Part shown: positions 2,631 through 51,847 of the stretch, piece after piece
Position numbering within the stretch: the first letter of the stretch is position 1
Layout: each line of letters begins with the position of its first letter
From: Nemertoderma westbladi
Taxonomy: Eukaryota > Animalia > Xenacoelomorpha
DNA: 60,119 bases
Assembly (NCBI GenBank): GCA_032718475.1
Contig: JAUCBJ010007483.1
Location: forward strand, 1 to 60,119
Direction of reading: 5' to 3'
Made by a program: the position numbers and the translations under genes
Notes under the pieces: model-generated
What the model saw: only the letters and a program-made list of their open reading frames with translations
Databases searched by the model: none
What the model was told of the DNA's origin: nothing

Positions 2631-2794
2631 TCCAAATCCATAAAACCAAAATTAAATATAAAACTGCACCAGCATCCCACCACCAATCAGAACAAAACAA
2701 TTAAGGCAATAAAATTTAACATACAATTAATACAATCACCGAGGTGGCTGACTATACTATATCTCATTTTAATTTATTCGATATTTTATTTTAG

Positions 2795-3457
2795 ATCAAT
2801 GTAACTACACATCATGGTGGGTTTTGAACTTGAATAATGGTGGAAATGATAGACTAGATTCTCACAATGGTGAAATTGTTGGAACATTAAGCTACGTACC
2901 CGGACCAGGCGGTGTAGAAAACCAAGCGATAGACTTCACTAACGGTTACATATCAATCGCACATGATCAAAATGAGTTAACCTCAGAATCTCTTACAATG
3001 TTGGCCTTTATCAATACGCCTGGTCTAGGTGGCCCAATATTTGAGTTTTGCGACACTGTAAACGTTGGAACACATCTATGGATTTGGCCTGATCCTCGTC
3101 AATTGCACTATAATCCAATGTCGTCAACAGTTAAATTATTTCCCAACGCCATCACCACCAACGAATGGTATTTGGTTGCGGTTGGTGTGAGTGCTGCTAA
3201 TAAACAAACATTCCTCTACAGTCGAAGAGTTGATAGTGCAGATTACAGCAGAATGGAGTTTGACACTCCAAATACCCAGAGAGCAGCATTGGATAGCACT
3301 GTGAATCTGTATTTGGGGAAACGTATTAACAATCTCGCACCAGGGCAGATAAACTTCCCAGGCTACATCGCCCATGCTCGATATTACCCTTGTTCTCTCT
3401 CAGTGAAACAATTAGGAGAAGCATACGAGGAGCTCCTAAATTACACTACGTCTAACA
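2795..3457 (+). CDS. Host exon encoding a LamG/concanavalin-A-like (Laminin_G_3/pentraxin-like) domain
   Basis: Acceptor ttttattttag at 2784-2794 and donor gtgagt at 3458, both phase 1. The translation has jellyroll-type motifs (QAIDFTNGYISI, LTMLAFI, NEWYLVAV, LYLGKR, FPGYIAHARYYPCSLS). Confidence 0.8.
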
Positions 3458-3798
3458 GTGAGTTAACCAATAACGATTAAAATATTAAATAAAGATATAA
3501 ATAATGTAATGGTATTCCCACAGAGATAAAGATCAATCGTATATCTGGGAACTTTCCCTACAATTCGCTGTATTTCGCTCCTATTCCCTGTAAAACACCC
3601 GGAAAATAGTGAAAATATTGATCAGCAGGAAATTATGAATTATTAATTTATTATAGGAAATTATTATAATTGAACACATGTACTATACTAAATTGGTAAT
3701 CCTAAATGTACTCCTTAAGGGGATCAGTACAGGCATTTTTTCCATAATAACTACTATTAAGCCACGGTACCATTTTAGAACTCATCAGATTACTTAAG

Positions 3799-9303: not shown

Positions 9304-10579
9304 TGTACGCGCTTTTGAAGACCTTTAGCAGTTTAACCTGCCAAAATTTATATGTCTTTTGGTTTATAAATATACTTTAGAAGATGACAAATATTTAATA
9401 CCAATAAACACAACATTAGCAGAAGCCAGCCTAGTGCGCGTCCATTCACCCGCTGGATATTCCCGGGAGACTGGATTCTGAGGGCTTAGATTATTATTGC
9501 AGTGTAAGCTTACTGTACTGTATTATTCGATTGATCGTTAATAATTAATTTCTGACTAATATTATTCACTTTCGGGAAATATTAACAGTTCCTCTAGGAC
9601 GTGGCGCTCTATCTAAGTAAACAGAGATATGACTTATACTAATCACAACGGTAAGTCGGTAAGGCTTAAGATTCACGTATGAGGCGCATTCTTTAGGAAA
9701 TGCTTAGTTATCAGTCACAATCAGGCACACTACCGGTAACATACAATACTGCTCACTAATTTGCCGACCGTCAATGAATTTTATCATATATAAAGAGAAC
9801 AGCAATGGACCAATGTAGTGCTTATCAAATAGCATTAAATTCACTACAAACCACAACAATATAAGTCGCAATCGCTATATATAACCCGTCTCTCTAACCT
9901 GTAGTGTATCAAGAAAATTGGGAAATTTGGGTTCTTTATATATGTTCTCCAAATAATGTTCAACCAAACACAATAGTAAACAGCAGTATAATAATGTATA
10001 TTGAACCGATAATATAAAAATAGAAACCAGTTGATATGAATTGATATATGATGTGGACTGTTATGAACTGATAACAGTTATACGCTCTATAATTTAAGCC
10101 TACTAATGTTACTTCTAAAGTATGAAACGAATTGATTCTAGAGCCGTTGTTCCTGGCCTAGATAGCAAAAACACAAAGTATCAAGAAAAAACAGTAAGAC
10201 TGAACACTCTCCTTATGATCGGCCGAAAAGCTACACGTCGACAGGAAAAATCGCTCTGATTGGCTCAAGCCAAACAAAGAACCATGCGTCCAATGGCTGT
10301 TTCCATGTCAGCAACCAGCTGTTAGATGTCGTAATATGAATCATCACGGCTAAGCTGTGAAAGGTATTTGGTGCATTGCAGGTTTTTTGCCTTACCATGT
10401 CCGCTAAAACACGTATATAGCAGAATGACTTTTATGTCCGTTAAAACACCTGTAACGGTACCTTGCGGGCGAGGGGAATATATATACAGTTAGAGAACCT
10501 TTTTAGAGTATTCCAGCGCCTGGGGGGAAACTGGATTGCGAAGCAAAAGGGCCAGTTATATCCCACAGAAGCTTTTACA
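9304..10579 (-). repeat. 3' LTR of element 1 (1276 bp)
   Basis: Nearly identical to 22249-23531. Preceded on the minus strand by a short purine-rich tract GGGAGCGG (10580-10587). Confidence 0.95.
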
Positions 10580-10657
10580 CCGCTCCCAGAAAATGGGATT
10601 TGAGTCTATAAAATATACAAAATCACAGTTTCTAATATACGTAAATACTCTAAACAG

Positions 10658-13600
10658 TTAGTCTTTCTTGCGCGGATGGCGTTTACGCAGTTTTTTAAAG
10701 CTAGCCAGAGTCCTTTTCTCTTTGGGGCGAGCCACTTTACAAGGAGGGCTATAACTCCTGGGTGAAGGGTGCAATATGATTGCATCAGAGGGTGTAGGAT
10801 TATGGTCGGTGTATCCGCCAGTCGAAGTAGCGGGTTGATTGACATCAACGTCAGGTGAGAGGGGTCTAACGGCTTTGAGAGCTCGTTTCAAGACAGCCGC
10901 TCTTACGGGTCCTTTACGAGTGGTCTGAACGAGGGCCGTGGGTGGACCATAGGCAGTTAGAAACTTCCGGGGTTTAATGGTCCTTTCCAACTCGCGTTCG
11001 CGGGCTCGGTATTCGTAAGGCCTTCGATGTACTTCCTGCAACTCGGGGTGTGAGTTAACAAACAAGTCTCCATAGTCCGGATCCTGACGGATATAATTGA
11101 TTAAGTTATAGGAATGAAGGTCGCTAGGATTAACACTCCTGAGAAATTTGCGTACGAATTTAGTTGAAATACATTATCCGACGCGCTTCAGTAGCTCGTA
11201 ACTTGATATGCGTGATTTCTGTTCAACAGAAGCGAATAGATAAGGATGGAACGCATAAACTCCTTCGTAAGCGCGTCCGGGATAATAGCGATGGCGCGAA
11301 TCACAATGTAAATCAGCGTTCGCTTCCCAAGCTCTGATGTAACGCAGTGTGATCATTTCATCTACGCTTTCCAAATCGTGATTAAAAGGGCAGTCAAAAC
11401 TAGCATGTCCCTTTAGTTGACAATGGTGACATTGAGTCATAAATTGAGGGCAAACCGCAAAGATATGCAGGTTATTGAGTCTGCAATATGCGCAATAAAT
11501 TTCCATAGTCGGTTGTTCTTGGAAATAGGAACAGCGGACGTTGGTGTCCATGGGCGTATCGTGGTCTCTCGATGCGCATAACCGACAACGTTGCCTAGAA
11601 ACATAGTTGGCATGTCGATAATCGTACGCAGTGAGACACTGTGGACCTTGATACCATTCTATGATGTAATCGTTGTCGCTGTTCCGGGGCGCGATAGGCT
11701 GAATCTCTTCAGATTCTAGACATATTGGATCGTCTTCCAAGTGCATAGCTGAAGTTGGCGCGTCTGTCTCTTCAGGTGGACCTATTGTCTGAATTTCCAC
11801 GACAGAATAACCTGTGGGGATTCGAAGTCTTTGTATAACAGAGGAGTGCAAGTTCGATATACAAATCTCTTTGAAAATGGCGAATCCAGCGCTATCCAAC
11901 TTCTCTGCAGCTGAGTTTCTTAGGCTGAGTTTGGTCAAAGCGCGGTCTTTAAATTGGCTATCCACGTTGCGGAACGGGGTTAAAAATCTCTGGAAACATT
12001 CGAAACGGATGAATTTATTATGTTCATCTAGCTTAGCGAGTTTGGTCCCAAGTATTAATGGATGGGCGCGTATAGTACGACTGCACACATCGGCTAGCCA
12101 ACCGGCAAGTGCGGTGTTTTCAAAGATCGTGTATATAGCTAAGGAGGGACGGAGTGGAACACTCATGAAGCTATACACGGCGCCAGGTGCGGTCAATGGT
12201 CCATCAAAGTATAATCGAGAATAATGGTCTCCGTATACCTGTTGATAGTTAATGGGATTTCCGACTTTGAAATTCCATCCGTATTCCTGAAAGGCAAGAT
12301 GTCCGATGGAAGTTCGTTGCACCTTGGTAATGTTGCTAGACGTATTAGCATACATGGTGCGGAAGAAACCTCGACCTTCTGCCCAGGGAGCAATCAGCTG
12401 AGCATCAACGAAAGGGTATGGAATGTTCTCCATGTTCCTGTAGGATGACTAATATGTTTTCCGCCATTGATGGTAGTGGTAGAGAGCAGGGGAAGGCCTA
12501 TGTCGTATTAAGAAATATTCAGAAATACGATCTCAGTAGGAGGATTCAATCGTTCGAAGACTATCTCTAGATGAATTTATCCCTAGCGAGGAGGTAAATA
12601 CCAGTTCAAGGATATGTTTGTCTCAGTTGTTCTACATAAGATTTCTTTCTCCAATCATTGAGGAAGGTGAACAACCAGATTTATGACACATAATGGTACC
12701 AGTTGTTCACAAACTATCCTCGTGTCCTTTCAGTCCTTGTTTGTATCACTGTTGCGGACTTAAGGAAATTATTGGTGGTTGATTTTCTAATCAACAACGC
12801 GAGGGTGGAAGTTGATATCATAAATATCAACAGAATGTGAAATGTGACATGGACGAGAGGTGTGGACACCAATATGAGCATACAAATAAACAGTAAGGGG
12901 TGGGGGATTTATTAGGAGGCGGTATGATCCATACCACGATACGGCAATGATTGGTCGATCGTCTCCCAAAGCTCCGAGCACATTGGGAAGAGAAGGTGGT
13001 CGAAGTATGCTATATTTTCGATAGCGATGTATAGAGGGATAAAGGGAGTAAAGAGGAGGGAGGATATATGGTAGTATCCATAAGATACCACAATGGACAT
13101 GTTTCCGTCACATCATCATTCATTCTTGCCCTTTAATTGTGATACTGATCACAATAATTACAGGAAAACGATGAAGGAAGAGAAATTACAGCCTCCCGAA
13201 GGAGACCGCCCGCGAGCACCCGTGCCCCGGGGAAAAACTATTCACATCATGGACCCTAGACATTAACCCATGTCTCTTCTCCAGTGTTCTCCTCTATTTG
13301 TCTTTACAAGTTTTCTTCCACGTTCTATCTTTCGAGTTGTTCTCGAATAGAATTCTCGCGTTCCATTCTCGGTTTATCGTTACGACTCCGCTGGGTATGA
13401 TATTTAAATAGAACCATTTCCCTTTCTGTATCTACATCGTCCATATCATGTAAGTCGATGGGATGGCCAGTCGTTAGGAAGTCCATATACGTACCATTAC
13501 GATTCGTATAGCGAGTGGTGAATTTTCGATAGTCCAATTCACGCGCAAGTTGCTCTTGGGACATCGGCGGTTCGATATAACGACCATCGTCCTCCGTAAT

Positions 13601-13702
13601 GGTTGGATCGGCTTCACCGCATATCAAGCTATCCCCAAATACTTGTAAAGGTAGAGTATATCGCTCCCTGATACCAAGATCATCTTCTATCAACTCCGTC
13701 AT
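10658..13702 (-). pseudogene. Element 1 accessory ORF2: Cys/His-rich zinc-knuckle protein with basic C-terminus, interrupted
   Basis: ORFs 13325-13702, 11174-12433 and 10658-11065 share one frame. The TAA at 11174 is GAA in element 2. Motifs include CHHCQLKGHASFDC (CX2CX4HX4C), CAYC and CRLC, and the end KKLRKRHPRKKD. Confidence 0.75.
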
Positions 13703-15339
13703 ATCTGCTATCTGAGTTTATTAATATTGTAATGAGTTTATGTTTAGGCGAGTGGGCGGCGCTGCCTACCTCTCTTCGCCCCGGACAGTGGGATTCTCAG
13801 CGCCGATGTACCGTCGTCGCGGAGTTTACGCCAACATGTAGCAACATCACGACAACGATAACCGGCACAAGTCACTCCACTGTCCGTCCCAAAGGCTTGA
13901 ATCCACTTTAGGTTCTATCTATAGGAGAGTTGGGTTACTTTCACAATTGCGACTAGCTACTGTAAACATACTTTAGCAGTAACATTCACCTATAAACGCA
14001 CAAATTCCACACAACTGTCACCAATTGTACACATACAGGCCATTTTTCCGTTAGTCAGTGCCTTCCAGAATGTCACGTTATTACTGTGTATCCTTGGATA
14101 CTAACAGTGTGCTATGTATTCTCTATGCTATGCAATGGGACAAGCTTTCTATTGTTCTTTTAACTTGCTTCTAATTCTAGCGTGGGTGTTGCTATGGTGA
14201 CATTATGGAATGCTAGCGGTAGAATTAGGGTAATTCTCATGCATACAGATCTGGAATGCTATTTAATAATAATTCTTTAATTGTCAATATCCTCTTTATG
14301 TATGATTTTATTAATTTTATCGGCTATTGACTATATGTTGGAGATTCTCGCACTCTAATACACTCAATAGGATGAATCTCCGCTCCCATGATCTATTAAT
14401 TAATGGAATTTTGGGAATGTTATAAATTGCACAAAATGACAATTTATAAAATTCATTTAAAATATGAATTTAAATTTATTCCCGTGAATTTTATTATTTG
14501 ATGTTAAAATTGACACAATTTTTATTCCAGAGCATGTCTGGGGACTGAGGATCCTTAATTCTATAAAATTGTCCTTTAAGAGTATCGGTAAACGCTGCGA
14601 TATCTTAATTGACTAGAAATTTAAAGGATCTGAATTTTACAGAATTTTACTAAATATTAAATTAATATTTAAGATGGGCACCGATTTATTCCAGAACTTG
14701 TCTGGGGACGTTAACCACTGATTCTAGAATTTGTCTTTCAAGTATATCGGTGGGTGCCGCGATATCTTAATCGACTAGAATTACAGATGGTCAAAGGTTT
14801 AACAGATTTATTTGCGTTTTATGCTACTGTTAGAGGGACATCACGCTACTATATGTATTATTTAATATAAGGTAGAAGAGCAATATCGCACGAAGCAATG
14901 TCAGTGTGAAGAGGCAAGTCGTTTCCAAGGTCTACCCAGAGCTTGGTTTAGCTGAGACACGAGGATCTGAACTTTGCATTCCTAATACTCTGCCTACCAA
15001 TAATACTTAAATATAGTAGGAGCTTTATTGTACTTTAATAAGTACGGACATTTCATCTTACTGTAGTCACGTATTTATAATATGATACGGACACACGGAC
15101 AGTAAGGAAAGAGAAAAATAATTATTTTCTCGCCGTCGCACTAAATGTATATTATACGTAATTACGTACGTAATAAACACTAATATATTGCACTAATCTA
15201 CTAAATAATCACTAAAATAACATTCTACTAAATAAAATTAAAGAAAACGATTATAATAAAATTACATAATAATACATACATAAATATAAAATACAAACAA
15301 ATATAAAATGATATAGTCACACGCCCACTCCATATGTTA

Positions 15340-18300
15340 TTACGTTATGGAGTCCCTAGATATTTGTCGGATTAGGGAAGTGGTCGTAGGAAGAGTATCT
15401 TGCCTTCCATAGTTTCCGGACAGTTTTCGGTCTCTTTCCAGTAAACATAAACGACCAGCTAGGCGATTGAGTTGTTGTGTTACTTTCTCCGCTCCCTTGG
15501 CCTGTCTAATCTCCGCCGGGGTAAGATGAGGAGGCCATTCTTCTTCTTCTTTACTTAAGAAGTCGGATCCACCTAACCAGCCTGGAGTATCTATCAGTTC
15601 TTGAGGAGTTGCTCCTCTGGAAGCGATGTCGGCTGGATCAATCGTCCCAAGGCAATGTCTCCATTGATCTACATTGGAGTTAATATCGTCATTATCTGAG
15701 GAGTATGGTGTTCCCTCAGTTGGATCGTCCACATCACTGCTCTCCACTTCCCATTCGTTTACTTGGTATACCTGTTGTTGAGGTAATCTCTCTTTGAGAG
15801 TTCTACGGGAAGGGCCAGTGAAGTACCAACCTACTCTAGTTCTTACCGCATAGGTTTGTAGTGGCTGCGGTTGAGCAGGCCGTTTCTCCAATGTCTCGAG
15901 CGCCTCATGCGCGTTTTGGCCGATGAGTATTTGCACTCCAGGATAATCTGTCTGGAATCGAGGTATCTTAAGATGTTGGATGCTCTCATCCTCGTCCCAA
16001 TTATAAAGGTCTGCTTGGGTAGTAGCGAAGTTCTTTATAGCCACCATTTTTACCGACCTTATACCTTGTGCTCCTAATTTATCCTGGGGGGTGGACAACA
16101 CACCTACATAGTAGTCTGCCGTTAGGGTAGATTTCCAAACCTGCATAATTCCTGACATATTTAATTTAGTCCGGAATTTGGGTTGTCCAGCAAAGATATC
16201 TTCGGCTAGTTCTTGATCGATGAATGTTCCTGTGCTGCCGGAGTCAAGGAGGGCGTTCACTATGTAACTTTTGTTAGGACCATGAACTCTTACCTGCACT
16301 ACAGGAAATTCTCTGATTCCTACGTTGGAAGTTGGAGCTTTCCAAGATGGTTGTCTGGCAAAAGTAGTTGGGGGGAACTCATTGTCGGTGTCCTTTTCAT
16401 AAGTAAGTGCTCGATACACTGAGGTATTTATTAGGTAACAGGATTCGTTGGCGTCGGAGAATTCGTCCGTATAGAATCCTTCCATCTCAGACTCTTGATC
16501 AGTGTCATTTACATCACTGAATTGGACATGTAGTTCGGGCTCACTTACCTGACTCGGGTTGTCTCGTTCGAACTCACTGTGTAACAAGATGTGATGTTTC
16601 GCGCCACACTTTGCACACTTTACGTCGGAGTAACAGGTTCGCCGTTGGTGTCCTGATCTGAGGCAATTATAGCATAACCGCTTATTCCACAGGACTGTAC
16701 GTCTGTCTACAGGGGATTTCTTTAGAAATTCAGCACACGCACTCAAACGGTGGGGCCCGTCGCACAGCGCACATTTTGGTTGGATGTTACTCACCTTACT
16801 TAACGTTACCTTTGGGTAACGTTATGCACTCTCGTTCTTTCTTCGGGCTTTCTTCCGTGAATTCTCTTAGGAGACGTAGGAGGAGTTGTTGTTACCTGTT
16901 CTCTCCTGTCACTGGTTCGAGACTTGTATTTACTTACGTCTTTATAGGTCTTGTTGTCATAGTAAGATTTTGCTGTGTCTTTCCCGCTGTCCTCTTCTTG
17001 AGAAGCTTGGCTTTCGCCGTCGTCAGTATAACACACTGGTATTATCCTTCTCCTAGAAGGGAGTTTCTCACTTACCTTATTTTCCGATGTTTTCTCTCTG
17101 GACTGCTTTATGAGTTGTAATTTTACTTCACTATCTAAGAAGGACATGAGATCAGTCATGGTAGGGCTTCGTCGTTGCTGCTCATTCATATACAACACTT
17201 TCTTGTCCCGGCGTGTACATACTCCACCCTTTGGTAAAGTAGAGACTACTGCTCCAATAACCATGGAACTCTGATATTCATGAGACTTACCTAACCAGTC
17301 CAATTGTCTACAGATCTCTTGAATCTCATCGGAAAACTCTATAATCCCGCTACTAAGGAAGTGTCGGGGGGCTACTAATTTGGCATACAAATACTTAGCT
17401 ATGTTATCCTTGTTACCATACCTGATGTTTAATGTATCCCAAACTTGTCTTAATCCTTCTGGATGTCCAATAAACTTTAACGCCATTAACTTGGGAGGTC
17501 CTTCCAAGCACTTGATGAGGAACCTAAGTTTCTCTCCGTTAGATAGTACAGAGTTCTGTATGCTATCTTTGTAATATTCATTGAAAGGTAACCATTTCAT
17601 CTCATCTCCATTGAATTTGACGATCTCTCCCACTTTGACCACTTGGCGGGCTTCTGTTCTAGCCATCTGACGCGTAAAGCTTTCTTGGGCCATCGTGTTA
17701 TTTAATATCGAATTATCGGTATATAAATTTCTCGGATCATTATCAGGTCTATAGGGAATATCATTAATAACAGGTCTATAATCACCCTTAATAGGGTTTG
17801 CTATAGGAGTTTCTACTTCACTAGCAGTATAGATGCGTGTAGGCTCCACACCTTGCGCATGTAATACTTCAGACCTAACAGGTTGACACAATGTTACAGG
17901 GGGTATTGGTATGCCCTTTTGTATATTGACTAACTTGTCGCGTTCCAGTGCGATACTTTGCTGCACTTCTTGCAACTCTGCTCTACCTTCCCTTACTGTT
18001 CCCTTAAGCTGGTGGACAGTCTCCTGCATCTGTCCGAGCAGGAGATTCATCCCCCGCCGTCCCTCCTCTACCCACTCGACCCCCGAAGCGGGAGTCGCCA
18101 ACATTGTAGCGGGCTGACGTGGGACGACGGGAGACAAATCTTTGATTTCTCTCTCAGCTTCCAGGACAGGAATATTCTCATGGACTGTTCTACCGGGTAC
18201 AGGCAGTGTAGTACTGTGTAAAGGGAACTTAGAGTTAAGCTCTGGAAGTACAGGGGTCTCTAGCACAGGTGTGACTTTTGGAACGACAGGCCTAATTATT

Positions 18301-20015
18301 TCAGGCTCATCAACTATTGTTGGGAGTCTTTTGACCTGAATAGTTTGGTATGTGGATTCCGTACTACCTAAGTCTGCGCTAGCTAGCTGTCTTCTAACAG
18401 CTGGGGGCAAATCAGGCAATTTGTGACGGTGAGCTGTTTTTCTACGCCTGCTTAGACGAGATCTATTTCCTCCGCCTTCAGGATCGGTGGTTTCGCTTTC
18501 CTCCGATGATGTGTATCCCTGGCGTTTGGGAGTAGATCGTCTCATCATCTGCATTTGACTAGCAGTTAACTGTTTATTTATGTTGTCTTGCGTCTCTTGC
18601 AGATTTTCCAACTCCAGTTGGGTAGTCTGCTCAGACGCTCTCCGTTCTGCTTCTGCCACTGCCCTTTCCGCCTTTGCTTCTGCCGCCGCTGCCTTTCTTT
18701 TTGCTTCTGCTTCTGCCGCTGCTGCCCTTGCTGCTATTCTTTCTGCTTCTACTTCTGCCGCCGCTGCTTTTCTTTCTGCTTCTACTTCTGCCGCCGCTGC
18801 TTTTCTTTCTGCTTCTGCTTCTGCCGTAGCCGCCGCCTTTTGTTCCTCTATCCGTCTTTTCTTTACTTTTTCTTCTTGGACTCTAGCGAGGCGGAGTTTT
18901 TCATCAAATTCTGCTTGGTTAGCAGCTAACATTTCAGCATCGATTGAATCCAACACACGCTGGGTTCCTTCACTATTGGGGGAAAGTCCAGACAGCCGTC
19001 TCCTCAACTCTTCGTCTCCTAGGAATCGCTGATAGTCGGACAGATAAATGTCTATGGCGTCTCTCGTTCGTGGTTTCTCTGAGGTCTCTTCGCCTTCCAC
19101 TTGAGAAAGGGTGGCATCGGTTGGTTCTTCATAAGTTAGTCTCTCAGACAGCTGGGATTTCCACTGGCCCGTTTCTTGTACTTTGCGACCTACCCGCTGG
19201 AACCAAGTTTTGACAGCAACCTGCAGCGACGTGTCCTGTCTTCTTTTGGAAGTTTCCTCAAAAGCTGATAAGATTAGTCGAATGCGTAGGGTTCTTTCGC
19301 GTACTTGATATAGCAGTTCTTCCTGCTCTTGAGGTCCTAGGGGTTGTCGAAACAGTTGTTCTTCTAATCGCTCTAAGGAGCCGAAGAATCCCTACACATA
19401 TCCTGCTGACGACCTCTTCCAAACAGCTGGATCCATCGTATCTTTAGCCACTCCCATCCTGTATATATCTTCCCAAGTAGCCTCGGACAGATCTAATGGG
19501 AGTCCGGGTCCGGGAAAGTTCCATTGTGACTCGACAATAGACATCAATTCTTCCCTGGCGTATCCCGCATAATTATCTTGGGTCGCTCGCTTATTTCTCA
19601 CCCAATCTGCTTGATGTTCCTCCACCGCAATCAATATAGTTGTTAGCACTGCGGCAGGAAGGGTGAGAAGGGGGTCCGAGTAGGCTTTAGCCGTCGTCTG
19701 CACTCCGCGTTCGGGGGTCAGCTCTACAGTATCCGAACTACTGGAGCTATCGGATCGCTGGGAACAAGTTTCTTGACTAGGATGTTGCTGCTGTTGGACA
19801 GCTGGTTCCTGGTTCCGTTTGACTTGGGCCCGAGTGCCGATGATAGACCTACGGTGTTGGATTAGCTTAGGGTCTGATACTACTACTGGAGGGATGACCT
19901 TTCTTTCAGTAGGAGGTGAGCTGAACTCCTTTCTTAATCGCTCAACACTCCTATCTGTGTCACAGATGGTTGTATCGATTAGGCTGTCTGACAGGTTTTG
20001 CTGAGTGTCAGACAT
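15340..20015 (-). pseudogene. gag: Element 1 Gag-protease ORF, disrupted
   Basis: Colinear with the intact 44954-49603 ORF. CAG>TAG stop at 19392-19394 and a frameshift near 16800. Confidence 0.92.
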
Positions 20016-21329
20016 GTTTAGCTATACAGTTGAATGCTTACTGCTATAGTTACAGTTAAAGCAAGTCTAGTAATTCAGTATGACCGTTGGCCTAGTACCG
20101 GTAATTTATTGCAGTATATTAGAATACCGGTATGCACTTATAATATATATAAGTATTGTAAACTAGTTTTGTCACAGAGTACCGGTATATAAATTTAGCA
20201 CAAATATATATAAATATATAATAGGCCTATCGTGAATACCGGTATACAGCTTACACTTATAGTATATATAAGTATAATTATGAACTAGAATTATTACAGA
20301 ATACCGGTATGATTTCAGCTCAAATTTATAGAAATAAATATAATAAGCCTATGGTAAATACCGGTATGTCAATTATTTTAGAATAATTGAATTTCTGAAT
20401 ATTTTAGGGTTACTTGGTTACTTTAACTTACTTTAATACCGTTATTTAAGCAGTAGTCCAACTGATATTGAGACCTAGTTGTTGTATGGCAGGCCTACTA
20501 TTTATAAATCGTTTGAGTTGATTTATAATAGATATATACCCGTTTAAAATGGGTTTTTGTCAATATTTGAAATAAATGTTATTATTTCTGGGGGGTCACT
20601 ACACAGAAGCTGTGCGCTCTCAGTGAAGTGCTATTTATTTGACACTAAAACTGATAATTCTAATTTACCTAAGTTACTTAATACTACAAATTACTTACGA
20701 TACGGGAGATTAATTCTCTAATTAAACACAACAAAAATATTACGTACGAATTTTTAGGGTAATTTTACAGGAAGTCTACAAACCAGTCTAACAAAGGGTT
20801 AGAATTCTGGTTATTACAACGGACAGGGTACTACGGTATTTGAAAATAATAAGTAGTAGTAAATATATTGCACTGTCCAGATAGGAAAATACCACCGCCT
20901 GACGACCTATAACCGTATCGCTATAGGTACTACGTTATGTATCACGGAGTGTTCCTACCTAGAAGTTAATTACTGCGGACTACCAGATCCAGCGTGCCTA
21001 TTAACCACTTTACAACACAAATATACTGCCCACACACTAATTACTTTCGGAAAGCACTGTACACTAAACCCTAAATTAGGTACAAGTACTAGTACAACAA
21101 ATAATCAGTAGTTAAATATACTTGAACAGTTAAAAGAACCACGGCATCTGCTGGAGTGACCAGAGCACAAAGTCACCAGTCTTGTCCTACGCCAAGCAGC
21201 CCGTGTAGTACCGGGGTTAATTTAACTATAACGGTATGTGTAACAAACACAATTACTGTAGGAATAAACTTGGGGACATGTATGTTGCGAATAATCGCAT
21301 AAACTCTGAACAATAAATATTACGCTACC

Positions 21330-21900
21330 CGTACAGAATACTCAAACAGAATACAAACCAAACGCTGGCAGACTACCACCAAGCCTAAATAAACTACAGT
21401 ATGTGTAGATTCCAAAATGGTTAGTTAGTATGCGTTCTAACACGGTAGTACGACTTATTCTTTAAGAGGGGATTGACATTACAGCTATGGCTGCCCCAAC
21501 TTACTAACTGGCACTCTATCGGACAAACTCTACACACGCAGCAATCTCTTCAGACCTAATAATAGCTAGACAACAATCCAGCCTACAAAATATCTGAGTA
21601 ATAACTATTACAGTACCTGAACAGACCACACAAACAAACACAGGCCAAAACGCTGGCAGAATACTGTCAAGCCTAAATAAACCACAGTATGTGCAGATTC
21701 CAAAATTGTTAGTTAGTATGCGTTCTAACACGGTAGTACGACTTATTCTTTAAGAGGGGATTGACCTTACAGCTATGGCTGCCCCAACTTACTAACTGGC
21801 ACTCTATCGGACAAACTCTACACACGCCGTAATCTCTCCAAACCCAACAACAATCTAACAGCAGTCCGGCCTACAATTATCTGAACAATCTGAGCAGACT
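21330..21900. repeat. ~288-bp tandem duplication in the element 1 leader (also ~50930-51500 in element 2)
   Basis: The block aaacgctggcaga...gctgccccaacttactaac occurs twice. Confidence 0.9.
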
Positions 21901-22054
21901 TACACGTCTTCAGCTCAATATTAACTTACATGTAAATAAAACCGACAGAAATAAGTAAAATCTCAATAAAAAATCAGGGCTGCAGTCCCTGATTAAATAC
22001 TAAGACCTACCGGTATACAATAATCAAAATCGAATAATACTAATGTACTTATAC

Positions 22055-22185
22055 TGGAAGTACCGGTTAGGACAGTTGGGCCTACGGACCTACAGAAGTA
22101 CCGGTTCTGGCAGTTGGACCTACGGACCTACAGCAGTACCGGTTCTGGCAGTTGGGCCTACTGACCTACAGAAGTACCGGTTCAG
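22055..22185. repeat. 38-bp tandem repeat, about 3.5 copies, in the leader next to the 5' LTR (also 51652-51782)
   Basis: taccggtt at 22061, 22099, 22137 and 22175. Confidence 0.9.
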
Positions 22186-22237
22186 GTTTACCGGTCGACC
22201 GGTACTTTCAACTTTATTGCTTACTGCAATAAAGTCA

Positions 22238-22248
22238 ATGACTGTTAT
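22238..22248 (-). promoter_or_regulatory. Non-tRNA primer-binding site candidate, element 1
   Basis: Abuts the 5' LTR, lacks TGG, and is 10/11 complementary to the LTR 11-mer at 23016-23026. Confidence 0.6.
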
Positions 22249-23531
22249 TGTACGCGCTTTTGAAGACCTTTAGCAGTTTAACCTGCCAAAATTTATATGT
22301 CTTTTGGTTTATAAATATACTTTAGAAGATGACAAATATTTAATACCAATAAACACAACATTAGCAGAAGCCAGCCTAGTGCGCGTCTATTCACCCGCTG
22401 GATATTCCCGGGAGACTGGATTCTGAGGGCTTAGATTATTATTGCAGTGTAAGCTTACTGTACTGTATTATTCGATTGATCGTTAATAATTAATTTCTGA
22501 CTAATATTATTCACTTTCGGGAAATATTAACAGTTCCTTTAGGACGTGGCGCTCTATCTAAGTAAACAGAGATATGACTTATACTAATCACAACGGTAAG
22601 TCGGTAAGGCTTAAGATTCACGTATGAGGCGCATTCTTTAGGAAATGCTTAGTTATCAGTCACAATCAGGCACTCTACCGGTAACATACAATACTGCTCA
22701 CTAATTTGCCGACCGTCAATGATTTTTATCATATATAAAGAGAACAGCAACGGACCAATGTAGTGCTTATCAAATAGCATTAAATTCACTACAATACACA
22801 ATAATGTAAGTCGCAATCGCTATATATAACCCGTCTCTCTAACCTGTAGTGTATCAAGAAAATTGGGAAATTTGGGTTCTTTATATATGTTCTCCAAATA
22901 ATGTTCAACCAAACACAATAGTAAACAGCAGTATAATAATGTATATTGAACCGATAATATAAAAATAGAAACCAGTTGTTATGAATTGATATATGATGTG
23001 GACTGTTATGAACTGATAACAGTTATACGCTCTATAATTTAAGCCTACTAATGTTTCTTCTAAAGTATGAAACGAATTGATTCTAGAGCCGTTGTTCCTG
23101 GCCTAGATAGCAAAAACACAAAGTATCAAGAAAAAACAGTAAGACTGAACAGTGAACACTCTCCTTATGATCGGCCGAAAAGCTACACGTCGACAGGAAA
23201 AATCGCTCTGATTGGCTCAAGCCAAACAAAGAACCATGCGTCCAATGGCTGTTTCCATGTCAGCAACCAGCTGTTAGATGTCGTAATATGAATCATCACG
23301 GCTAAGCTGTGAAAGGTATTTGGTGCATTGCAGGTTTTTTGCCTTACCATGTCCGCTAAAACACGTATATAGCAGAATGACTTTTATGTCCGTTAAAACA
23401 CCTGTAACGGTACCTTGCGGGCGAGGGGAATATATATACAGTTAGAGAACCTTTTTAGAGTATTCCAGCGCCTGGGGGGAAACTGGATTGCGAAGCAAAA
23501 GGGCCAGTTATATCCCACAGAAGCTTTTACA
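22249..23531 (-). repeat. 5' LTR of element 1 (1283 bp)
   Basis: Differs from the 3' LTR by about a dozen substitutions (by eye) and a 7-bp insertion. Confidence 0.95.
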
Positions 23532-24919: not shown

Positions 24920-25711
24920 CTAGCTGCCTAGGATATCGAATAGGCCCTCTGACGGAGATTCAACTGTACCGAGGACAGCGGCCGAGTTCCCAACAAGTAT
25001 TGCGACCGCGATGCGCTGAAGCAGGAAACGATGGGAGCGAGGATCCTGTGTCGATAAATGTATCCTCCTACTGACCTCCTTCAGGAAAACTTCCGTTGCC
25101 GGACCGGGGCGACCAAACGTTTCAAAGGCGACTGGCGTGAACAGGAAACGCTGGTCAATATTTTCCTGACATTTCCTGATCTTGAGGGTTTCCTGGTTTT
25201 CAGCAGCACGTCCGCCGGTATGTATGCTTGTTGCCAGGTGGCTTTGGGCGAGTGGGTGTACAACCGTGGCGTCCCATGTCAACGTTTTGCACCTGGACCA
25301 GGGGACTAGGGACATCCCGTCTACTCGTTTGCCATCCCCTCGGCATAGACTCGGTGGTTCTAGGATGGATGGCACATGTGGATGTGCCCGCTTTACGATC
25401 TCATTGATCATTGTGTGGCGAGACAACCGGCCAGCGCTTCGTTGGCACGAGAGTCCGTGTAGGCCATCAGCTTCAACAGCAGTGCCACACCTGGTACACT
25501 CATGGGGATCGGTAACCCAGCATCCGAGGCGGGTCGCAATGGAGATCCTGAACTGAGCATCCGTTAACTTGAGACCCAAAGCAGAACTTGGAATAGCATC
25601 GAGCCAACAACCTGCGGTTGGGTCTTCCACCGAGTTGAGCCAGGCAATATCGTGGGGTAAGGCGGAGGTGTGAAGCGAAGCAAGGTTGACTTTGTGGATT
25701 GGTGTTGTCAA
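24920..25711 (-). mobile_element. 5'-truncated CRE-clade non-LTR retrotransposon (zinc finger plus restriction-like endonuclease)
   Basis: Motifs WLDAIPSSALGL, CTRCG...HGLSC, RH, DGKRVDG...WDATV, PVAFETFG, QRIAVAI..GN. Confidence 0.85.
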
Positions 25712-25869
25712 GATTTCTGGTTGGTGTTAGTTGGTGGCACTGATTCCGGTGTGACTGAGGATTTCCATAGATCCATTTCGATTTCCAATGTTTGGTCTGG
25801 GCTGCGCTGAGAAGCGGTGAAGAGTCTCATCAGTTCATTAGTTTACCTGTTAAAAGTCATATGTCTTAA

Positions 25870-27377
25870 ACCTATTAAACCCGGGGGGGGGGGTCAATTT
25901 GACTCCCTCCGTGGTTTTTTTGTTATAATTCTGAAACAAACGCAGTTGGGTGTCTGGAAATTTGTGACTTTTCATAAAATTCTATTGTCTTCCTAGTTGT
26001 GAAAACCGTTTTCAAAAATATTGGGTAGTTTTCGAGTTATAGCACCATTTTTTAACCCTACTTTTTTGGTGTTAGCAATTGGATGGAATTCATATAAATT
26101 GATTTAGAAATTTCAAACTTGTTTTTTTCGGCGGGTGCAAAATTTTGGTGCCAGCACCAAATTTTGAAATTTGTAATTTTTGTAAATTGATTGATTGAAA
26201 CTTGTTTTTTACGCAATTGGGCTTTTTCGGGGTTATGGTTTCGATGGAATATATAAGTGTTGCACCAGGCGTATCAAAGCCATCGCGCATCCACCAAGGC
26301 GCATCAAACCAAGGCGCATCAGGCGTTTTCGGAGCTGTGTGCAAATTTTGGTGCTAGCACTAAATTTTGAAAATCCATTCAATAGATCAAATTGCTTGTG
26401 ACGATTTATTTCTTGCGTTTTAGAGGTTTATGGCTGTTCTGAATTCAATGGAATATATAATTATCGAACTAGACATCTCAAACTTGTATTTTTCGGAAGT
26501 GGGTGTAAAATATGGTGCATGCTATAGCACCAAATTTTGAAAACCATCAAATATATCAATTGATTCTGTCACCTTTTTTCTTGCGTTATACGGGTTTGTG
26601 AGGGTTCTGAATTCAGTGGAATCAGTAAAAATTTCATAAGAGTTTTCGAACTTGAATTTTTCGGAGGTGGGTGAAAATTGTTGTGCCAGCACCAAATTTT
26701 TGAAAATAATATTGATCAGTAGATAGTATCATATTCTTTCTTGCGTTATACGGGTTAATGAGGGTCCTGAATCCGATGGAATCAATAAAAACAGCACTGG
26801 ACATCGCAAACTTGTACTTTTTGGTGATGGGTACGAAATTTGGTGCTAGCACCAAAATTTGCCAAATTACGCCGAAAAATACAAGCAGCAATGATCTGGC
26901 ATATTTGAAATGTATTCCATTAGAATCAGCGCCCGAGAAAACCTGAAAATGTGAATTTATAGCATCGTATAAGTGAATTAAAAATTTTGTGTTCTAACTG
27001 AAATGTGCTGGCTACTTGTTTTTTTCATTTTTTTCCTAGGCAGGAGAGGACTAAACAGCCATTTATAGTAATCATATCATTTTTAAATATTTTCCAATGT
27101 ATTTTGCGCCCCCGAATACCTGTATTGAAAAACAATTAGCCGAAAAATGTAACTTTCAAATTTTGTGAAAATTATGCACTACTTGTAATTATTGGTGCTC
27201 CAATATAACCATCCCAGTACATTTTTTCAAAAATGTTATTTTTCGGTCGGATCCAGACTAGTGATACCTACGTACAAACAAAAAATCAGACGTTTTCGTA
27301 AATATTTGTAGATTTTAGAGGGGAGGGGGGGGGGAATATGACTCCCCCCCCCCCCCCCGGTATTTGTACTAATAGGG
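25870..27377 (+). mobile_element. piggyBac-like non-autonomous element, copy A
   Basis: TTAA-(a)cctatta...taataggg-TTAA termini, subterminal gggtcaatttgac palindromes and internal ~130-bp repeats. It is the reverse complement of 38329-39893. Confidence 0.85.
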
Positions 27378-28002
27378 TTAATTAAACTCTCATTACCATA
27401 GCAACTGGAGTTTTCTAGAACTGCTCGGTTTTACATCAAGATCCGGTTTATGATTCCAGGTGACATATATCGACTTCAATTCAGTTTTATTGAGTAGTTT
27501 ATGTCCAAAATTAATTATTGATTTGTTAAAACGTCTGTTTGGAGTGGTTGTCATGGAAACTGGGAAATAGAGGTGATTGTGTTTTTCTAACTATTATGGT
27601 TTTGCTACAAATAGAGATTTGAGTATTGACTTGAATGATATAGAATTAAATATACTCCCAGTTACCATGGTAACTAGATATTTCTGGAAATGTTTTGAGT
27701 TTCACTAAAAGTTCCAACTAGTGGTCCAGATAACACATGCCCAGTTTCGTAAAAATTTATCGCGAAGTCTATGTCCAAATGAGTTATTTTTGTGTCAAAA
27801 CATCTGTTTTCAGCGGTAGTCATGATAACTGCAAAATTGAACAATGAAATTTGAATGCAGAATAAGTCATATAGTGGGTGTAGGGCTTGGTCCCAAGTCA
27901 CAATACTATTAAGTTGTGCTTCAAATTATCATTTTATAAATTTTAACTTCTTTTTAGTCTGGTTGCTATGGTAACTGGATTTTCTAATTATAATAATATA
28001 AC

Positions 28003-31000
28003 AATAATTTGTTAGGGAGTTAGCTGAGAAAATCTTGGCGTTAGTAAATAATATAACAATACTTTGTTAGGGAAGTTAGCTGAGAAAATCTTGGAGTTGT
28101 TAGTAAAAATATAACAATTCTTTGTTAGGGGAGTTAGCTGAGAAAATCTTGGCATTAGTAAATAATATAGCAATACTTTGTTAGGGAGTTAGGTGAGAAA
28201 ATCTTGGAGTTGTTAGTAAAAATATAACAATACTTTGTTAGGGGAGTTAGCTGAGAAAATCTTGGCGTTAGTACTACTACTACAGTACTAGGATCGGCAT
28301 GCTGCATTGCAGCTGCATTTTTAAGAATGCTGTGCCGGCTTGTCAACAAAATTGCACCGCCACAACTCCCTATCACCCATGACATTTGCTAGATCATCCG
28401 CATCTTTAAGGCCAGTGTCCTTTAAGATGCGTCTCAAGAAAGTCATGGGCTGTCCACCATGCTTATTCACTCCATGAGGCTGCCAAAGTACAAGATTATG
28501 CACTAGCTGGTCCTCACGGCGAAAGCAATGTCCTGCAAAGCGGAGGCGATTTTGTTCTAGTGTCAAGCTTGGGGGAACCAATGAGACACCTCCAATGTTA
28601 TATAGTGTCTGGTTGGAGATGTGTGCATTGTACATGACTTGTATTGTATTGGACTTGTCTTGGCGTTAGTAAATAATATAACAATACTTTGTTAGGGGAG
28701 TTAGCTGAGAAAATCTTGGAGTTGTTAGTAAAAATATAACAATACTTTGTTAGGGGAGTTAGCTAAGAAAATATTGGCGTTAGTAAATAATATAACAATA
28801 CTTTGTTAGGGGGGTTAGCTGAGAAAATATTGGCGTTAGATAAAATGTAACAATACTTTGTTAGGGGAGTTAGCTGAGAAAATCTTGGCGTTAGTAAAAA
28901 TATAACAATAATTTGTTAGAGGAGTTTGCTGAGAAAATCTTGGCGTTAGTAAATAATATAACAATACTTTGTTAGGGGAGTTAGCTGAGAATGTCATGGC
29001 ATTAGTAAATAATATAACAATACTTTGTAAGGGGAGTTAGCTGAGAAAATCTTGGCGTTAGTAAAAATATAACAATAATTTGTTAAAGGAGTTTGCTGAG
29101 AAAATCTTGGCGTTAGTAAATAATATAACAATACTTTGTTAGGGGAGTTAGGTGATAAAATCTTGGCGTTAGTAAATACTGTAATATAAAAATACTTTGT
29201 TAGGGGAGCTAGGTGAGAAAATCTTGGCGTTAGTAAATAATATAACAATACTTTGTAAGGGGAGTTAGCTGAGAAAATCTTGGCGTTAGTAAAAATATAA
29301 CAATAATTTGTTAGGGGAGTTAGTTGAGAAAATCTTGGCGTTAGTAAAAATGTAACAATACTTTGTTAGGGGAGTTAGCGGAGAAAATCTTGGCGTTAGT
29401 AAAAATATAACAATAATTTGTTAGGGGAGTTAGATAAGAAAATCTTGGCGTTAGTAAAAATGTAACAATACTTTGTTAGGGGAGTTAGCGGAGAAAATCT
29501 TGGCGTTAGTAAAAATATAACAATAATTTGGTAGGGGAGTTGGCTGAGAAAATCTTGGCGTTAGTAAAAATATAACAATAATTTGGTAGGGGAGTTGGCT
29601 GAGAAAATCTTGGCGTTAGTAAAAATATAACAATACTTTGTTAGGGGAGTTAGCTAAGAAAATCTTGGCGTTAGTAAAAATATAACAATACTTTGTTAGG
29701 GGAGTTAGCTAAGAAAATCTTGGCGTTAGTAAAAATGTAACAATACTTTGTTAGGGGAGTTAGCTGAGAAAATCTTGGCGTTAGTAAAAATATAACAATA
29801 CTTTGTTAGGGGAGTTAGCTAAGAAAATCTTGGCGTTAGTAAAAATATAAATATACTTTGTAAGGGGAGTTAGCTGAGAAAATCTTGGCGTTAGTAAAAA
29901 CATAACAATAATTTGTTAGGGGAGTTAGTTGATAAAATCTTGGCGTTAGTAAAAATGTAACAATACTTTGTTAGGGGAGTTAGCGGAGAAAATCTTGGCG
30001 TTAGTAAAAATATAACAATAATTTGTTAGGGGAGTTAGATAAGAAAATCTTGGCGTTAGTAAAAATGTAACAATACTTTGTTAGGGGAGTTAGCGGAGAA
30101 AATCTTGGCGTTAGTAAAAATATAACAATAATTTGTTAGGGGAGTTAGATAAGAAAATCTTGGCGTTAGTAAAAATGTAACAATACTTTGTTAGGGGAGT
30201 TAGCGGAGAAAATCTTGGCGTTAGTAAAAATATAACAATAATTTGGTAGGGGAGTTGGCTGAGAAAATCTTGGCGTTAGTAAAAATATAACAATACTTTG
30301 TTAGGGGAGTTAGCTAAGAAAATCTTGGCGTTAGTAAAAATGTAACAATACTTTGTTAGGGGAGTTAGCGGAGAAAATCTTGGCGTTAGTAAAAATATAA
30401 CAATAATTTGGTAGGGGAGTTGGCTGAGAAAATCTTGGCGTTAGTAAAAATATAACAATAATTTGTTAGGGGAGTTAGTTGAGAAAATCTTGGCGTTAGT
30501 AAAAATGTAACAATACTTTGTTAGGGGAGTTAGCGGAGAAAATCTTGGCGTTAGTAAAAATATAACAATAATTTGGTAGGGGAGTTGGCTGAGAAAATCT
30601 TGGCGTTAGTAAAAATATAACAATAATTTGTTAGGGGAGTTAGTTGAGAAAATCTTGGCGTTAGTAAATAATATAACAATACTTTGTAAGGGGAGTTAGC
30701 TGAGAAAATCTTGGCGTTAGTAAAAATATAACAATAATTTGTTAGGGGAGTTAGTTGAGAAAATCTTGGCGTTAGTAAAAATGTAACAATACTTTGTTAG
30801 GGGAGTTAGTTGAGAAAATCTTGGCGTTAGTAAAAATGTAACAATACTTTGTAAGGGGAGTTAGCTAAGAAAATCTTGGCGTTAGTAAAAATATAAAAAT
30901 ACTTTGTAAGGGGAGTTAGCTGAGAAAATCTTGGCGTTAGTAAAAACATAACAATAATTTGTTAGGGGAGTTAGTTGAGAAAATCTTGGCGTTAGTAAAA

Positions 31001-33757
31001 ATGTAACAATACTTTGTTAGGGGAGTTAGCGGAGAAAATCTTGGCGTTAGTAAAAATATAACAATAATTTGTTAGGGGAGTTAGATAAGAAAATCTTGGC
31101 GTTAGTAAAAATGTAACAATACTTTGTTAGGGGAGTTAGCGGAGAAAATCTTGGCGTTAGTAAAAATATAACAATAATTTGTTAGGGGAGTTAGATAAGA
31201 AAATCTTGGCGTTAGTAAAAATATAACAATAATTTGTTAGGGGAGTTAGTTGAGAAAATCTTGGCGTTAGTAAAAATGTAACAATACTTTGTTAGGGGAG
31301 TTAGTTGAGAAAATCTTGGCGTTAGTAAAAATGTAACAATACTTTGTAAGGGGAGTTAGCTAAGAAAATCTTGGCGTTAGTAAAAATATAACAATACTTT
31401 GTTAAGGGAGTTAGCTAAGAAAATCTTGGCGTTAGTAAAAATATAACAATACTTTGTTAGGGGAGTTAGCTAAGAAAATCTTGGCGTTAGTAAAAATGTA
31501 ACAATACTTTGTTAGGGGAGTTAGCTGAGAAAATCTTGGCGTTAGTAAAAATATAACAATACTTTGTTAGGGGAGTTAGCTAAGAAAATCTTGGCGTTAG
31601 TAAAAATGTAACAATACTTTGTTAGGGGAGTTAGCTAAGAAAATCTTGGCGTTAGTAAAAATATAACAATAATTTGTTAGGGGAGTTAGATAAGAAAATC
31701 TTGGCGTTAGTAAAAATGTAACAATACTTTGTTAGGGGAGTTAGCGGAGAAAATCTTGGCGTTAGTAAAAATATAACAATAATTTGGTAGGGGAGTTGGC
31801 TGAGAAAATCTTGGCGTTAGTAAAAATATAACAATAATTTGGTAGGGGAGTTGGCTGAGAAAATCTTGGCGTTAGTAAAAATATAACAATACTTTGTTAG
31901 GGGAGTTAGCTAAGAAAATCTTGGCGTTAGTAAAAATATAACAATACTTTGTTAGGGGAGTTAGCTAAGAAAATCTTGGCGTTAGTAAAAATGTAACAAT
32001 ACTTTGTTAGGGGAGTTAGCTGAGAAAATCTTGGCGTTAGTAAAAATATAACAATACTTTGTTAGGGGAGTTAGCTAAGAAAATCTTGGCGTTAGTAAAA
32101 ATATAAATATACTTTGTAAGGGGAGTTAGCTGAGAAAATCTTGGCGTTAGTAAAAACATAACAATAATTTGTTAGGGGAGTTAGTTGATAAAATCTTGGC
32201 GTTAGTAAAAATGTAACAATACTTTGTTAGGGGAGTTAGCGGAGAAAATCTTGGCGTTAGTAAAAATATAACAATAATTTGTTAGGGGAGTTAGATAAGA
32301 AAATCTTGGCGTTAGTAAAAATGTAACAATACTTTGTTAGGGGAGTTAGCGGAGAAAATCTTGGCGTTAGTAAAAATATAACAATAATTTGTTAGGGGAG
32401 TTAGATAAGAAAATCTTGGCGTTAGTAAAAATGTAACAATACTTTGTTAGGGGAGTTAGCGGAGAAAATCTTGGCGTTAGTAAAAATATAACAATAATTT
32501 GGTAGGGGAGTTGGCTGAGAAAATCTTGGCGTTAGTAAAAATATAACAATACTTTGTTAGGGGAGTTAGCTAAGAAAATCTTGGCGTTAGTAAAAATGTA
32601 ACAATACTTTGTTAGGGGAGTTAGCGGAGAAAATCTTGGCGTTAGTAAAAATATAACAATAATTTGGTAGGGGAGTTGGCTGAGAAAATCTTGGCGTTAG
32701 TAAAAATATAAAAATACTTTGTAAGGGGAGTTAGCTGAGAAAATCTTGGCGTTAGTAAAAACATAACAATAATTTGTTAGGGGAGTTAGTTGAGAAAATC
32801 TTGGCGTTAGTAAAAATGTAACAATACTTTGTTAGGGGAGTTAGCGGAGAAAATCTTGGCGTTAGTAAAAATATAACAATAATTTGTTAGGGGAGTTAGA
32901 TAAGAAAATCTTGGCGTTAGTAAAAATGTAACAATACTTTGTTAGGGGAGTTAGCGGAGAAAATCTTGGCGTTAGTAAAAATATAACAATAATTTGTTAG
33001 GGGAGTTAGATAAGAAAATCTTGGCGTTAGTAAAAATGTAACAATACTTTGTTAGGGGAGTTAGCGGAGAAAATCTTGGCGTTAGTAAAAATATAACAAT
33101 AATTTGGTAGGGGAGTTGGCTGAGAAAATCTTGGCGTTAGTAAAAATATATAATAATTTGGTAGGGGAGTTGGCTGAGAAAATCTTGGCGTTAGTAAAAA
33201 TATAACAATACTTTGTTAAGGGAGTTAGCTAAGAAAATCTTGGCGTTAGTAAAAATATAACAATACTTTGTTAGGGGAGTTAGCTAAGAAAATCTTGGCG
33301 TTAGTAAAAATGTAACAATACTTTGTTAGGGGAGTTAGCTGAGAAAATCTTGGCGTTAGTAAAAATATAACAATACTTTGTTAGGGGAGTTAGCTAAGAA
33401 AATCTTGGCGTTAGTAAAAATATAACAATACTTTGTTAGGGGAGTTAGCTAAGAAAATATTGGCGTTAGTAAAAATGTAACAATAATTTGTTAGGGGAGT
33501 TAGCTAAGAAAATCTTGGCGTTAGTAAAAATGTAACAATACTTTGTTAGGGGAGTTAGCTGAGAAAATCTTGGCGTTAGTAAAAATATAACAATAATTTG
33601 GTAGGGGAGTTGGCTGAGAAAATCTTGGCGTTAGTAAAAATATAACAATAATTTGTTAGGGGAGTTAGCTAAGAAAATATTGGCGTTAGTAAAAATATAA
33701 CAATACTTTGTTAGGGGAGTTAGCTTAGAAAATCTTGGGATTAGTAAAAATATAACA
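28003..33757 (+). repeat. 55-bp satellite array, about 100 monomers
   Basis: Unit ttaggggagttagctgagaaaatcttggcgttagtaaaaatataacaatactttg. A single monomer also lies at 24690-24738. Confidence 0.98.
28274..28657 (-). mobile_element. Short 5'-truncated RTE-like LINE inserted in the satellite
   Basis: Almost identical to 35937-36288, with a (TAG)n tail and flanking duplication tcttggcgttagta. Confidence 0.9.
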
Positions 33758-39893: not shown

Positions 39894-40612
39894 TTAACTT
39901 TTATTCTTGCGGAGTTGTTCTTCTGACCAGGAAAGTACAGTCAAAATCGTGTCACATTTGGTAGGTGGAGAATCAATCAAAGGCCCAAAAGGAACTGAGT
40001 AGGTCCTTCGGGTATATGGCCGTCTTCTTGTGATTTACATTGTATGCAATCTGACAATTCCATTTGAGTTGTTACACTGTTATGGTGAACTGATGATACA
40101 CACCAAGAGACATCAGTTTTCAATGCTGAGTTTAAGATTTAACAGTTTCAAAAATCAAATGGGAAGATTGCTGTTGGTAAACAAATGCTGGTGGTAATGG
40201 TTTTATTTCCCCCATTGAATGGAAGAGAATCGATAGCAGTTAGATTTCTTACCCTTAATGAGTTTAATTCCTTTTTACTATATGTTCTAGGAATGTTTAT
40301 TTCACATGGTTTAGCACTGCCTCCACTTGATAGCTGTGTGAACTCTGAAGCTGTTACTGCATTTCTCGACATCCATTTGGTGTATAAACTTGTAAATCAA
40401 AATTATCACACCACACACTAATTATATTTGGACTATCATTGAATACATCTTTGAAACTGGAATATGTGGCCGATTTGCGAAATCTTAACACTTCATCAAA
40501 ACTAGCAACGTATCCATTCGAGTGTAAAATATCAATATGTTGCCTGGGTCCAAACTGGAAGTGTAGCTTTATAGCCAAACCAAGCATGGTCTGATTATAA
40601 GATTTACAGACT

Positions 40613-41805: not shown

Positions 41806-41883
41806 CCGCTCCCAGAAAATGGGATTTAAGTCTATAAAATATACAAAATCACAGTTTCTAAAATATAAAAATACTCTAAACAG

Positions 41884-51836: not shown

Positions 51837-51847
51837 ATAACTGTTAC
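51837..51847 (-). promoter_or_regulatory. Non-tRNA primer-binding site candidate, element 2
   Basis: ataactgttac is the exact reverse complement of gtaacagttat at 52585-52595 in the LTR. Confidence 0.65.

Follow-up and report, generated by a model that had tools for sequence, protein, structure and literature searches.

Orphan ORFs in the env slot of LTR retrotransposons are a known pattern. Additional ORFs occur in plant LTR elements (PMC7264820), and bdelloid rotifer elements carry non-Env ORF3s (PMC5408684). The Cer1 element of C. elegans has a non-Env ORF in the env position, which makes up CERV's C-terminal half, and CERV is needed for the export of the genomic RNA (PMC10309623). The ways in which animal LTR elements get unspliced RNA past nuclear retention and silencing are known for few cases, CERV among them. 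According to PMC2774666, BEL/Pao elements are described from animals only. Their env-slot genes are of several types, namely the GN/GC of Atlas, the F-like gene of Roo, and a chuvirus gB-like gene (PMC9094657, PMC13524379, PMC3118150), and the accessible text of PMC3118150 names only env as an extra BEL/Pao gene. I found no orphan ORF in this slot described for BEL/Pao, nor a non-Env or knuckle-type third ORF of BEL/Pao in the literature; supplements and repeat catalogues may hold one.

Here, a 60,119-nucleotide contig of Nemertoderma westbladi (JAUCBJ010007483.1; the whole stretch is called the window) was analysed. An earlier note, made from the letters of this DNA, had placed a zinc-knuckle ORF of about 1000 codons in the env position of an LTR element. 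The features of the two copies of this element are as follows.

9304-23531, minus strand: element 1, an LTR element with TG...CA ends and a 5-bp target duplication of its own
22249-23531, minus strand: 5′ LTR of element 1, differing from the 3′ LTR at 11 of 1283 columns and bounded by TG...CA; the same 5 bp flanks the element
20022-22248, minus strand: 5′ leader of element 1, 2.2 kb, with 38-, 288-, and 122-bp tandem repeats
15340-20021, minus strand: gag-protease frame of element 1, BEL/Pao type, broken by one stop and one frameshift
13703-15339, minus strand: spacer of element 1, AT-rich and non-coding (GC 0.35; 30-47 stops per frame in the six frames)
13325-13702, minus strand: piece A, 125 codons, acidic, open in both elements, weakly supported as coding
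12434-13324, minus strand: the middle, 292 codons, not coding in this copy, with 15 stops; the other two frames have 12 and 16
10658-12433, minus strand: piece B, the accessory gene itself, which runs for 591 codons from its ATG at 12433, with one stop at 11174-11176
11387-11587, minus strand: three Cys/His knuckles in B (CX2CX4HX9C, CX2CX5HX4C, CX2CX4HX4C)
10661-11000, minus strand: basic tail of B, proline-rich, ending in a Lys/Arg cluster that is NLS-like by eye
9304-10579, minus strand: 3′ LTR of element 1, with a short purine tract before it
40613-53040, minus strand: element 2, of the same family, with an open 1551-codon gag-pro frame, the same pol loss, and a 5-bp target duplication

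The two elements belong to BEL/Pao. A BEL-type Gag (DUF1759, with E=4e-12 and 8e-12 in the first ORF of the two elements), knuckles, and an aspartyl protease, the match to which is weak, share one frame. The 44 homologues of gag-pro are BEL/Pao-type polyproteins, with 21-33% identity where at least a fifth of the query aligns, and 42 of them carry PF05380, the Pao peptidase. In both elements, the match to full-length relatives leaves off at target residue 898, resumes at 1476, and ends at residue 1521 of 2053. Thus, the reverse transcriptase, most of the RNase H, and the integrase have been lost in the same way in both copies. A tblastn search with three full-length relatives likewise recovered only gag, protease, and a pol piece of about 50 residues from each element. 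In element 2, the pol loss is in frame (44954-49609), and gag-protease continues into a 50-residue piece from the RNase H side. The tail after this piece resembles, by eye, the integrase end of the relatives, and the single 1551-codon frame is kept. As read from the translations, the Gag of both elements bears three knuckles of its own. The N-terminal part of Gag (about 770 residues; 47300-49606 and 17700-20021) has Ala/Glu/Arg coiled-coil repeats, which are not the same in the two copies; it matches no Pfam family above the cut-off and shows purifying selection, with a 0-fold/4-fold ratio of 0.38. A TGG-type primer site is absent directly behind the 5′ LTR in both leaders (20022-22248 and 49610-51847). 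Donor-like words in these long leaders number 10 in sense versus 0 and 2 in antisense, which is not above shuffled sequences.

The frame from 13702 to 10658 on the minus strand spans 1015 codons and is interrupted by 17 stops ahead of the final one. As had been noticed, three open pieces in this one frame lie before the 3′ LTR, at 13702-13325 (125 aa), 12448-11174 (424 aa), and 11173-10658 (171 aa). The chance of a stop-free run of 424 codons is about 7e-11 at the local stop density. It was also correct that the stop at 11174 is read as sense in element 2. The stop at 11174-11176 is private to element 1, and the full depth of four sequencing runs agrees in showing another letter there. The length of about 1000 codons, however, is not confirmed, given the internal stops; decay since insertion cannot account for the 15 in the middle, where the mismatch between the LTRs predicts only about 4 changes. 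A and B are not joined into one ORF in this copy, and the gene here has about 590 codons. It starts about 3 kb past the gag-pro stop.

Might A and B nevertheless be parts of one ORF of 700-1000 codons in the common form of the family, with the middle of element 1 decayed or replaced? This is possible but doubtful, and it would be compatible with all functional readings given below. A and B share one frame, and a CX2CX3H...C motif lies in the middle in that same frame. TAA is scarce among the middle stops, with 2 of 15 against 41% expected (p=0.023). Contigs of three or four sequencing runs depart from the element 1 sequence at 12435-12438 and at 13343-13344. Thus, other copies differ from element 1 between A and B. 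On the other hand, the stop density of the middle equals that of the other frames, and the break in conservation comes 5 nt before the ATG of B, where the edge of a gene would be expected to put it. Indels whose lengths are not divisible by three are concentrated in the middle: the 12 indels listed of 15 over the whole region fall 7 in the middle, 2 in B, 0 in A, and 3 upstream, and the two in B are a compensating pair 3 nt apart. For the middle alone, all 12 listed indels (of 13) are not multiples of three. Third-position bias is also absent. Among 85 variant places, 40 were listed; two in A were dropped, and the 38 used in the middle fall 11/17/10 on the three codon positions (p=0.32).

The substitution pattern between the two elements indicates that B is a real gene under purifying selection. 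Over 356 shared codons, the dN/dS of B is 0.135, against 1.6, 1.1, and 2.3 in shifted or antisense frames. B differs at 15 of 669 0-fold sites and at 19 of 150 4-fold sites (ratio 0.18, p=5e-7). These tests cover the 3′ 356 codons of B kept by element 2; the 5′ 230 codons are missing from that copy. The signal is found in each subregion, namely the knuckles (p=0.011), the probably helical part (p=0.0008), and the tail (0-fold 5/206 versus 4-fold 7/61, p=0.007). Simple counting proved lenient, as one frame of the non-coding spacer also yielded a dN/dS of 0.49 (p=0.0015), and the 0-fold/4-fold test was relied on. In this test, neither the spacer nor the leader used as controls was significant, and the spacer showed no codon bias. 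For piece A, the dN/dS is 0.335 and the 0-fold/4-fold ratio is 0.49 (p=0.14).

Is the gene kept in the copies that lost pol, as had been proposed? Neither of the two copies in the window is intact. The third gene of element 2 lacks what corresponds to positions 11743-13343 of element 1 (a 1.6-kb deletion), and the rest has one frameshift and two stops. Two knuckle ligands are lost, and 15 of 18 Cys/His residues are kept. The LTRs of element 2 have TG...CA ends and differ at 7 of 1193 sites; together with the 11 mismatches in 1283 columns of element 1, this indicates that both insertions are recent. Only about 3 changes in 1068 nt are expected in the element 2 gene since insertion, and this gene was probably already dead at the last move of the copy. 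Thus, it would be dispensable in cis. Near-identical LTRs and an open gag-pro frame beside a dead gene count against retention. In addition, the gag-pro C-terminal half, which holds the pol deletion, differs between the elements at 7 of 311 4-fold sites, compared with 19 of 150 in B. The divergence of B and the selection on it may therefore predate the Pol-less form, B having been recombined in. The gag N-terminal half differs at 52 of 346 4-fold sites. The two elements are mosaics. Their divergence is 1-15% in internal 500-nt bins and 17-23% in the LTRs, each of which also has a block of about 500 nt that can hardly be aligned. It is likely that LTRs or modules were recently swapped between subfamilies.

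The window contains further repeats. A third, more distant LTR-like piece (972-1756) is 74-77% like the LTRs of both elements and may be the solo LTR of a related family. A 55-bp satellite extends from 28658 to 33757 in 92.5 copies, and related 58/113-bp units lie at 27991-28273. A pair of inverted repeats of about 1.5 kb (89%) is located at 25866-27369 and 38357-39897, with internal 163-bp units. Pieces of non-LTR retrotransposons (34716-37346 and 24920-25726) contain two RT fragments (RVT_1, DUF6451), one on each strand; their tails look like a restriction-like endonuclease by eye, with no Pfam match. An open frame of 235 codons (2773-3480, plus strand) is LamG/lectin-like by eye, has no Pfam match, and is possibly a host exon. 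A 36-bp tandem repeat (56996-58072, about 30 copies) is open in several frames and could be a Thr/Ser-rich coding repeat.

The product of B begins with an N-terminal domain of about 217 residues, followed by an acidic linker and the three knuckles. After these come about 130 residues that are probably helical and then a tail of 114 residues. An LRR-like pattern was seen by eye in the first domain and has no Pfam support. The earlier note had described clustered CxxC/H motifs including a perfect CCHC knuckle, a Lys/Arg-rich NLS-like tail, and the lack of a signal peptide or TM helix, and all of these hold. Two knuckle variants (codons 706-724 and 737-751) are followed by a perfect CX2CX4HX4C (758-771). 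Lys/Arg make up 24% of the last 114 residues, and Pro makes up 13%. In a simple scan, the highest 19-residue hydropathy is 0.64 for A and 1.10 for B, and therefore neither has a signal or membrane segment. An RxK/RR site is absent in A and B, and there are 2 glycosylation sequons. Two single-sequence AlphaFold models gave mean pLDDT values of 32.7 and 32.3, too low for either to be usable. Taken together, the translated sequence supports an anatomy like that of a nucleic-acid-binding protein. AG sites sit ahead of both ATGs. Splice-donor-like words were not enriched compared with 200 shuffles in any of 8 segments, and they were slightly depleted in the 3′ region of element 1 (9 of 200 shuffles at or below).

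Relatives of B were looked for. With X put in for the stop, the frame had no relative in a set of 1.84 billion protein representatives, and this search found no host gene of origin either. There was no match among 1089 candidates, nor among 6787 candidates at E≤1. Metagenome and viral contigs gave 41 and 1 pattern matches, respectively, none of which was confirmed as a related locus. The whole B frame had one PDB match (E=1.4), and Pfam gave only a sub-threshold knuckle (zf-CCHC_3, E=0.0092, below the curated cut-off). With an 81-residue sub-query of the knuckle segment, the best match was Air2 (2lli_A, E=0.021 over 39 residues), a weak and post hoc match, as the sub-query was picked after the motif was seen. 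The same sub-query matched a thrombospondin domain, NCp10, and Copia Gag at E=0.6-0.8. Atlas matches all scored below 0.9 and are leads only; they include knuckle/DUF8363 clusters at 0.75-0.82. Homology to a known Env or host gene, which would speak against a non-Env accessory gene, was thus sought in Pfam, the PDB, BEL polyproteins, and the protein representatives, and none was found. Contigs of one run labelled as from a second organism (X4) are 80-97% like piece B (searched with 10560-13900 of the window). The family may span more than one species, or the sample may be mixed.

By analogy, B may encode an accessory protein that binds RNA in the nucleus, operates as CERV does for Cer1 in C. 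elegans, and acts in trans, a reading which I hold tentatively and with somewhat less than even confidence. The tandem knuckle pair of B, with the spacing of the second and third knuckles in the Air2 construct 2lli, speaks for this reading, as does the purifying selection; in Air2, knuckles 2-4 are the RNA-binding ones (PMC3384339). The message for B would be spliced or started internally, and the protein would enter the nucleus via its basic tail. Its knuckles would bind the RNA of the element itself. Unspliced full-length RNA might thereby escape nuclear retention or decay, as CERV enables for Cer1. Pol-less copies with a dead gene would move using the proteins of other copies. The damage in element 2, with its deletion, frameshift, stops, and lost ligands against the few changes expected, supports such action in trans.

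Could B instead be a second nucleocapsid-like chaperone, in the cytoplasm or the particle, that packages RNA or helps to prime reverse transcription? A perfect retroviral-type CCHC knuckle and a basic tail would suit this role, as would the missing TGG-type primer site next to the 5′ LTR, and the weak NCp10 and Copia Gag knuckle scores (E=0.7-0.8) fit a nucleocapsid-like role too. It is nevertheless unlikely, since Gag already has three knuckles in both elements, a capsid-domain match is absent, and element 2 moved with its copy of the gene probably dead.

A decoy is a somewhat less probable alternative. A mimic of Air1/2-type knuckle adaptors might protect the RNA of the element against nuclear surveillance or silencing by small RNAs. 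The best solved-structure match of the knuckle segment is Air2, which serves TRAMP as its RNA-binding subunit (PMC3384339). Against this, the match is weak and confined to two knuckles, and a host gene of origin was not found among the protein representatives. Membership of B in the Air1/Air2 type itself was rejected, because B has three knuckles rather than five and the match covers 39 residues only.

B as a passenger, that is, a captured gene of the host or of a foreign transposon, such as an F-box/LRR-type or gag-like ORF, is very unlikely. The first 217 residues do lead to nematode F-box/FTH/LRR Atlas clusters (0.85-0.89), but with only 116-132 shared features, scores under 0.9, and no support from Pfam or HMMER. 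Moreover, a 0-fold/4-fold ratio as low as that of B would not persist in a passenger among mobile copies. Finally, a divergent envelope gene is hardly credible and for A and B largely refuted: apart from hydrophobic stretches (2.1-2.3) in other frames of the middle, it has only its position in its favour in a superfamily that captured several unrelated fusogens (PMC13524379, PMC9094657), whereas A and B have neither a signal nor a membrane segment, no RxK/RR site, only the two sequons, and no Env match in Pfam, the PDB, or BEL polyproteins. As the BEL/Pao env-slot genes in these two sources are membrane fusogens, the low hydropathy of B argues that it is no Env. The non-Env reading of the earlier note thus agrees with the purifying selection, the nucleic-acid-binding anatomy, and the absence of a match to a known Env.

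The reading of B as a CERV-like accessory protein can be extended. In one BEL/Pao lineage, the env slot might have been taken over by a new family of Air2-like knuckle proteins, which would bind the RNA of the element in the nucleus and shield or export it. Such a protein would be a shared good among recombining Pol-less copies that keep Gag and exchange this module, selected while copies with a dead gene ride along. I regard this wider scenario as decidedly doubtful. A knuckle gene that is under selection and has no membrane segment, in a superfamily whose env-slot genes in the sources above are fusogens, would represent an independent and testable way past nuclear retention and silencing.

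How does this locus compare with the known systems? For now, the third ORF is an orphan, with two broken copies, no relatives, and no fold. Like B, CERV of Cer1 involves a non-Env ORF between the pol position and the 3′ LTR, with a Cys finger and an NLS candidate. However, Cer1 is an autonomous Ty3/Gypsy element, whereas the element here is BEL/Pao and Pol-less. CERV has a C4-type loop and exons shared with gag, while B has CCHC knuckles, and sequence similarity between the two was not found in the search of 1.84 billion representatives, which was not pairwise. The env genes of BEL/Pao occupy the same slot in the same superfamily, but they encode membrane glycoproteins, which B, with no membrane or signal segment and no match, does not resemble. 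The rotifer ORF3s are GDSL or DEDDy enzymes in other superfamilies (PMC5408684). The orphan nuclear ORFs of plants, likewise in other superfamilies, are mostly antisense in the available part of PMC7264820, while B is in sense. Air2 has the same tandem spacing as B (CX2CX5HX4C followed by CX2CX4HX4C), but it has five knuckles and is a host TRAMP subunit. The TR-GAG elements of plants have kept their LTRs and gag, have lost the enzymes, and are still inserting (PMC8704663). They have one ORF, whereas the BEL/Pao element described here also keeps the protease and a third gene.
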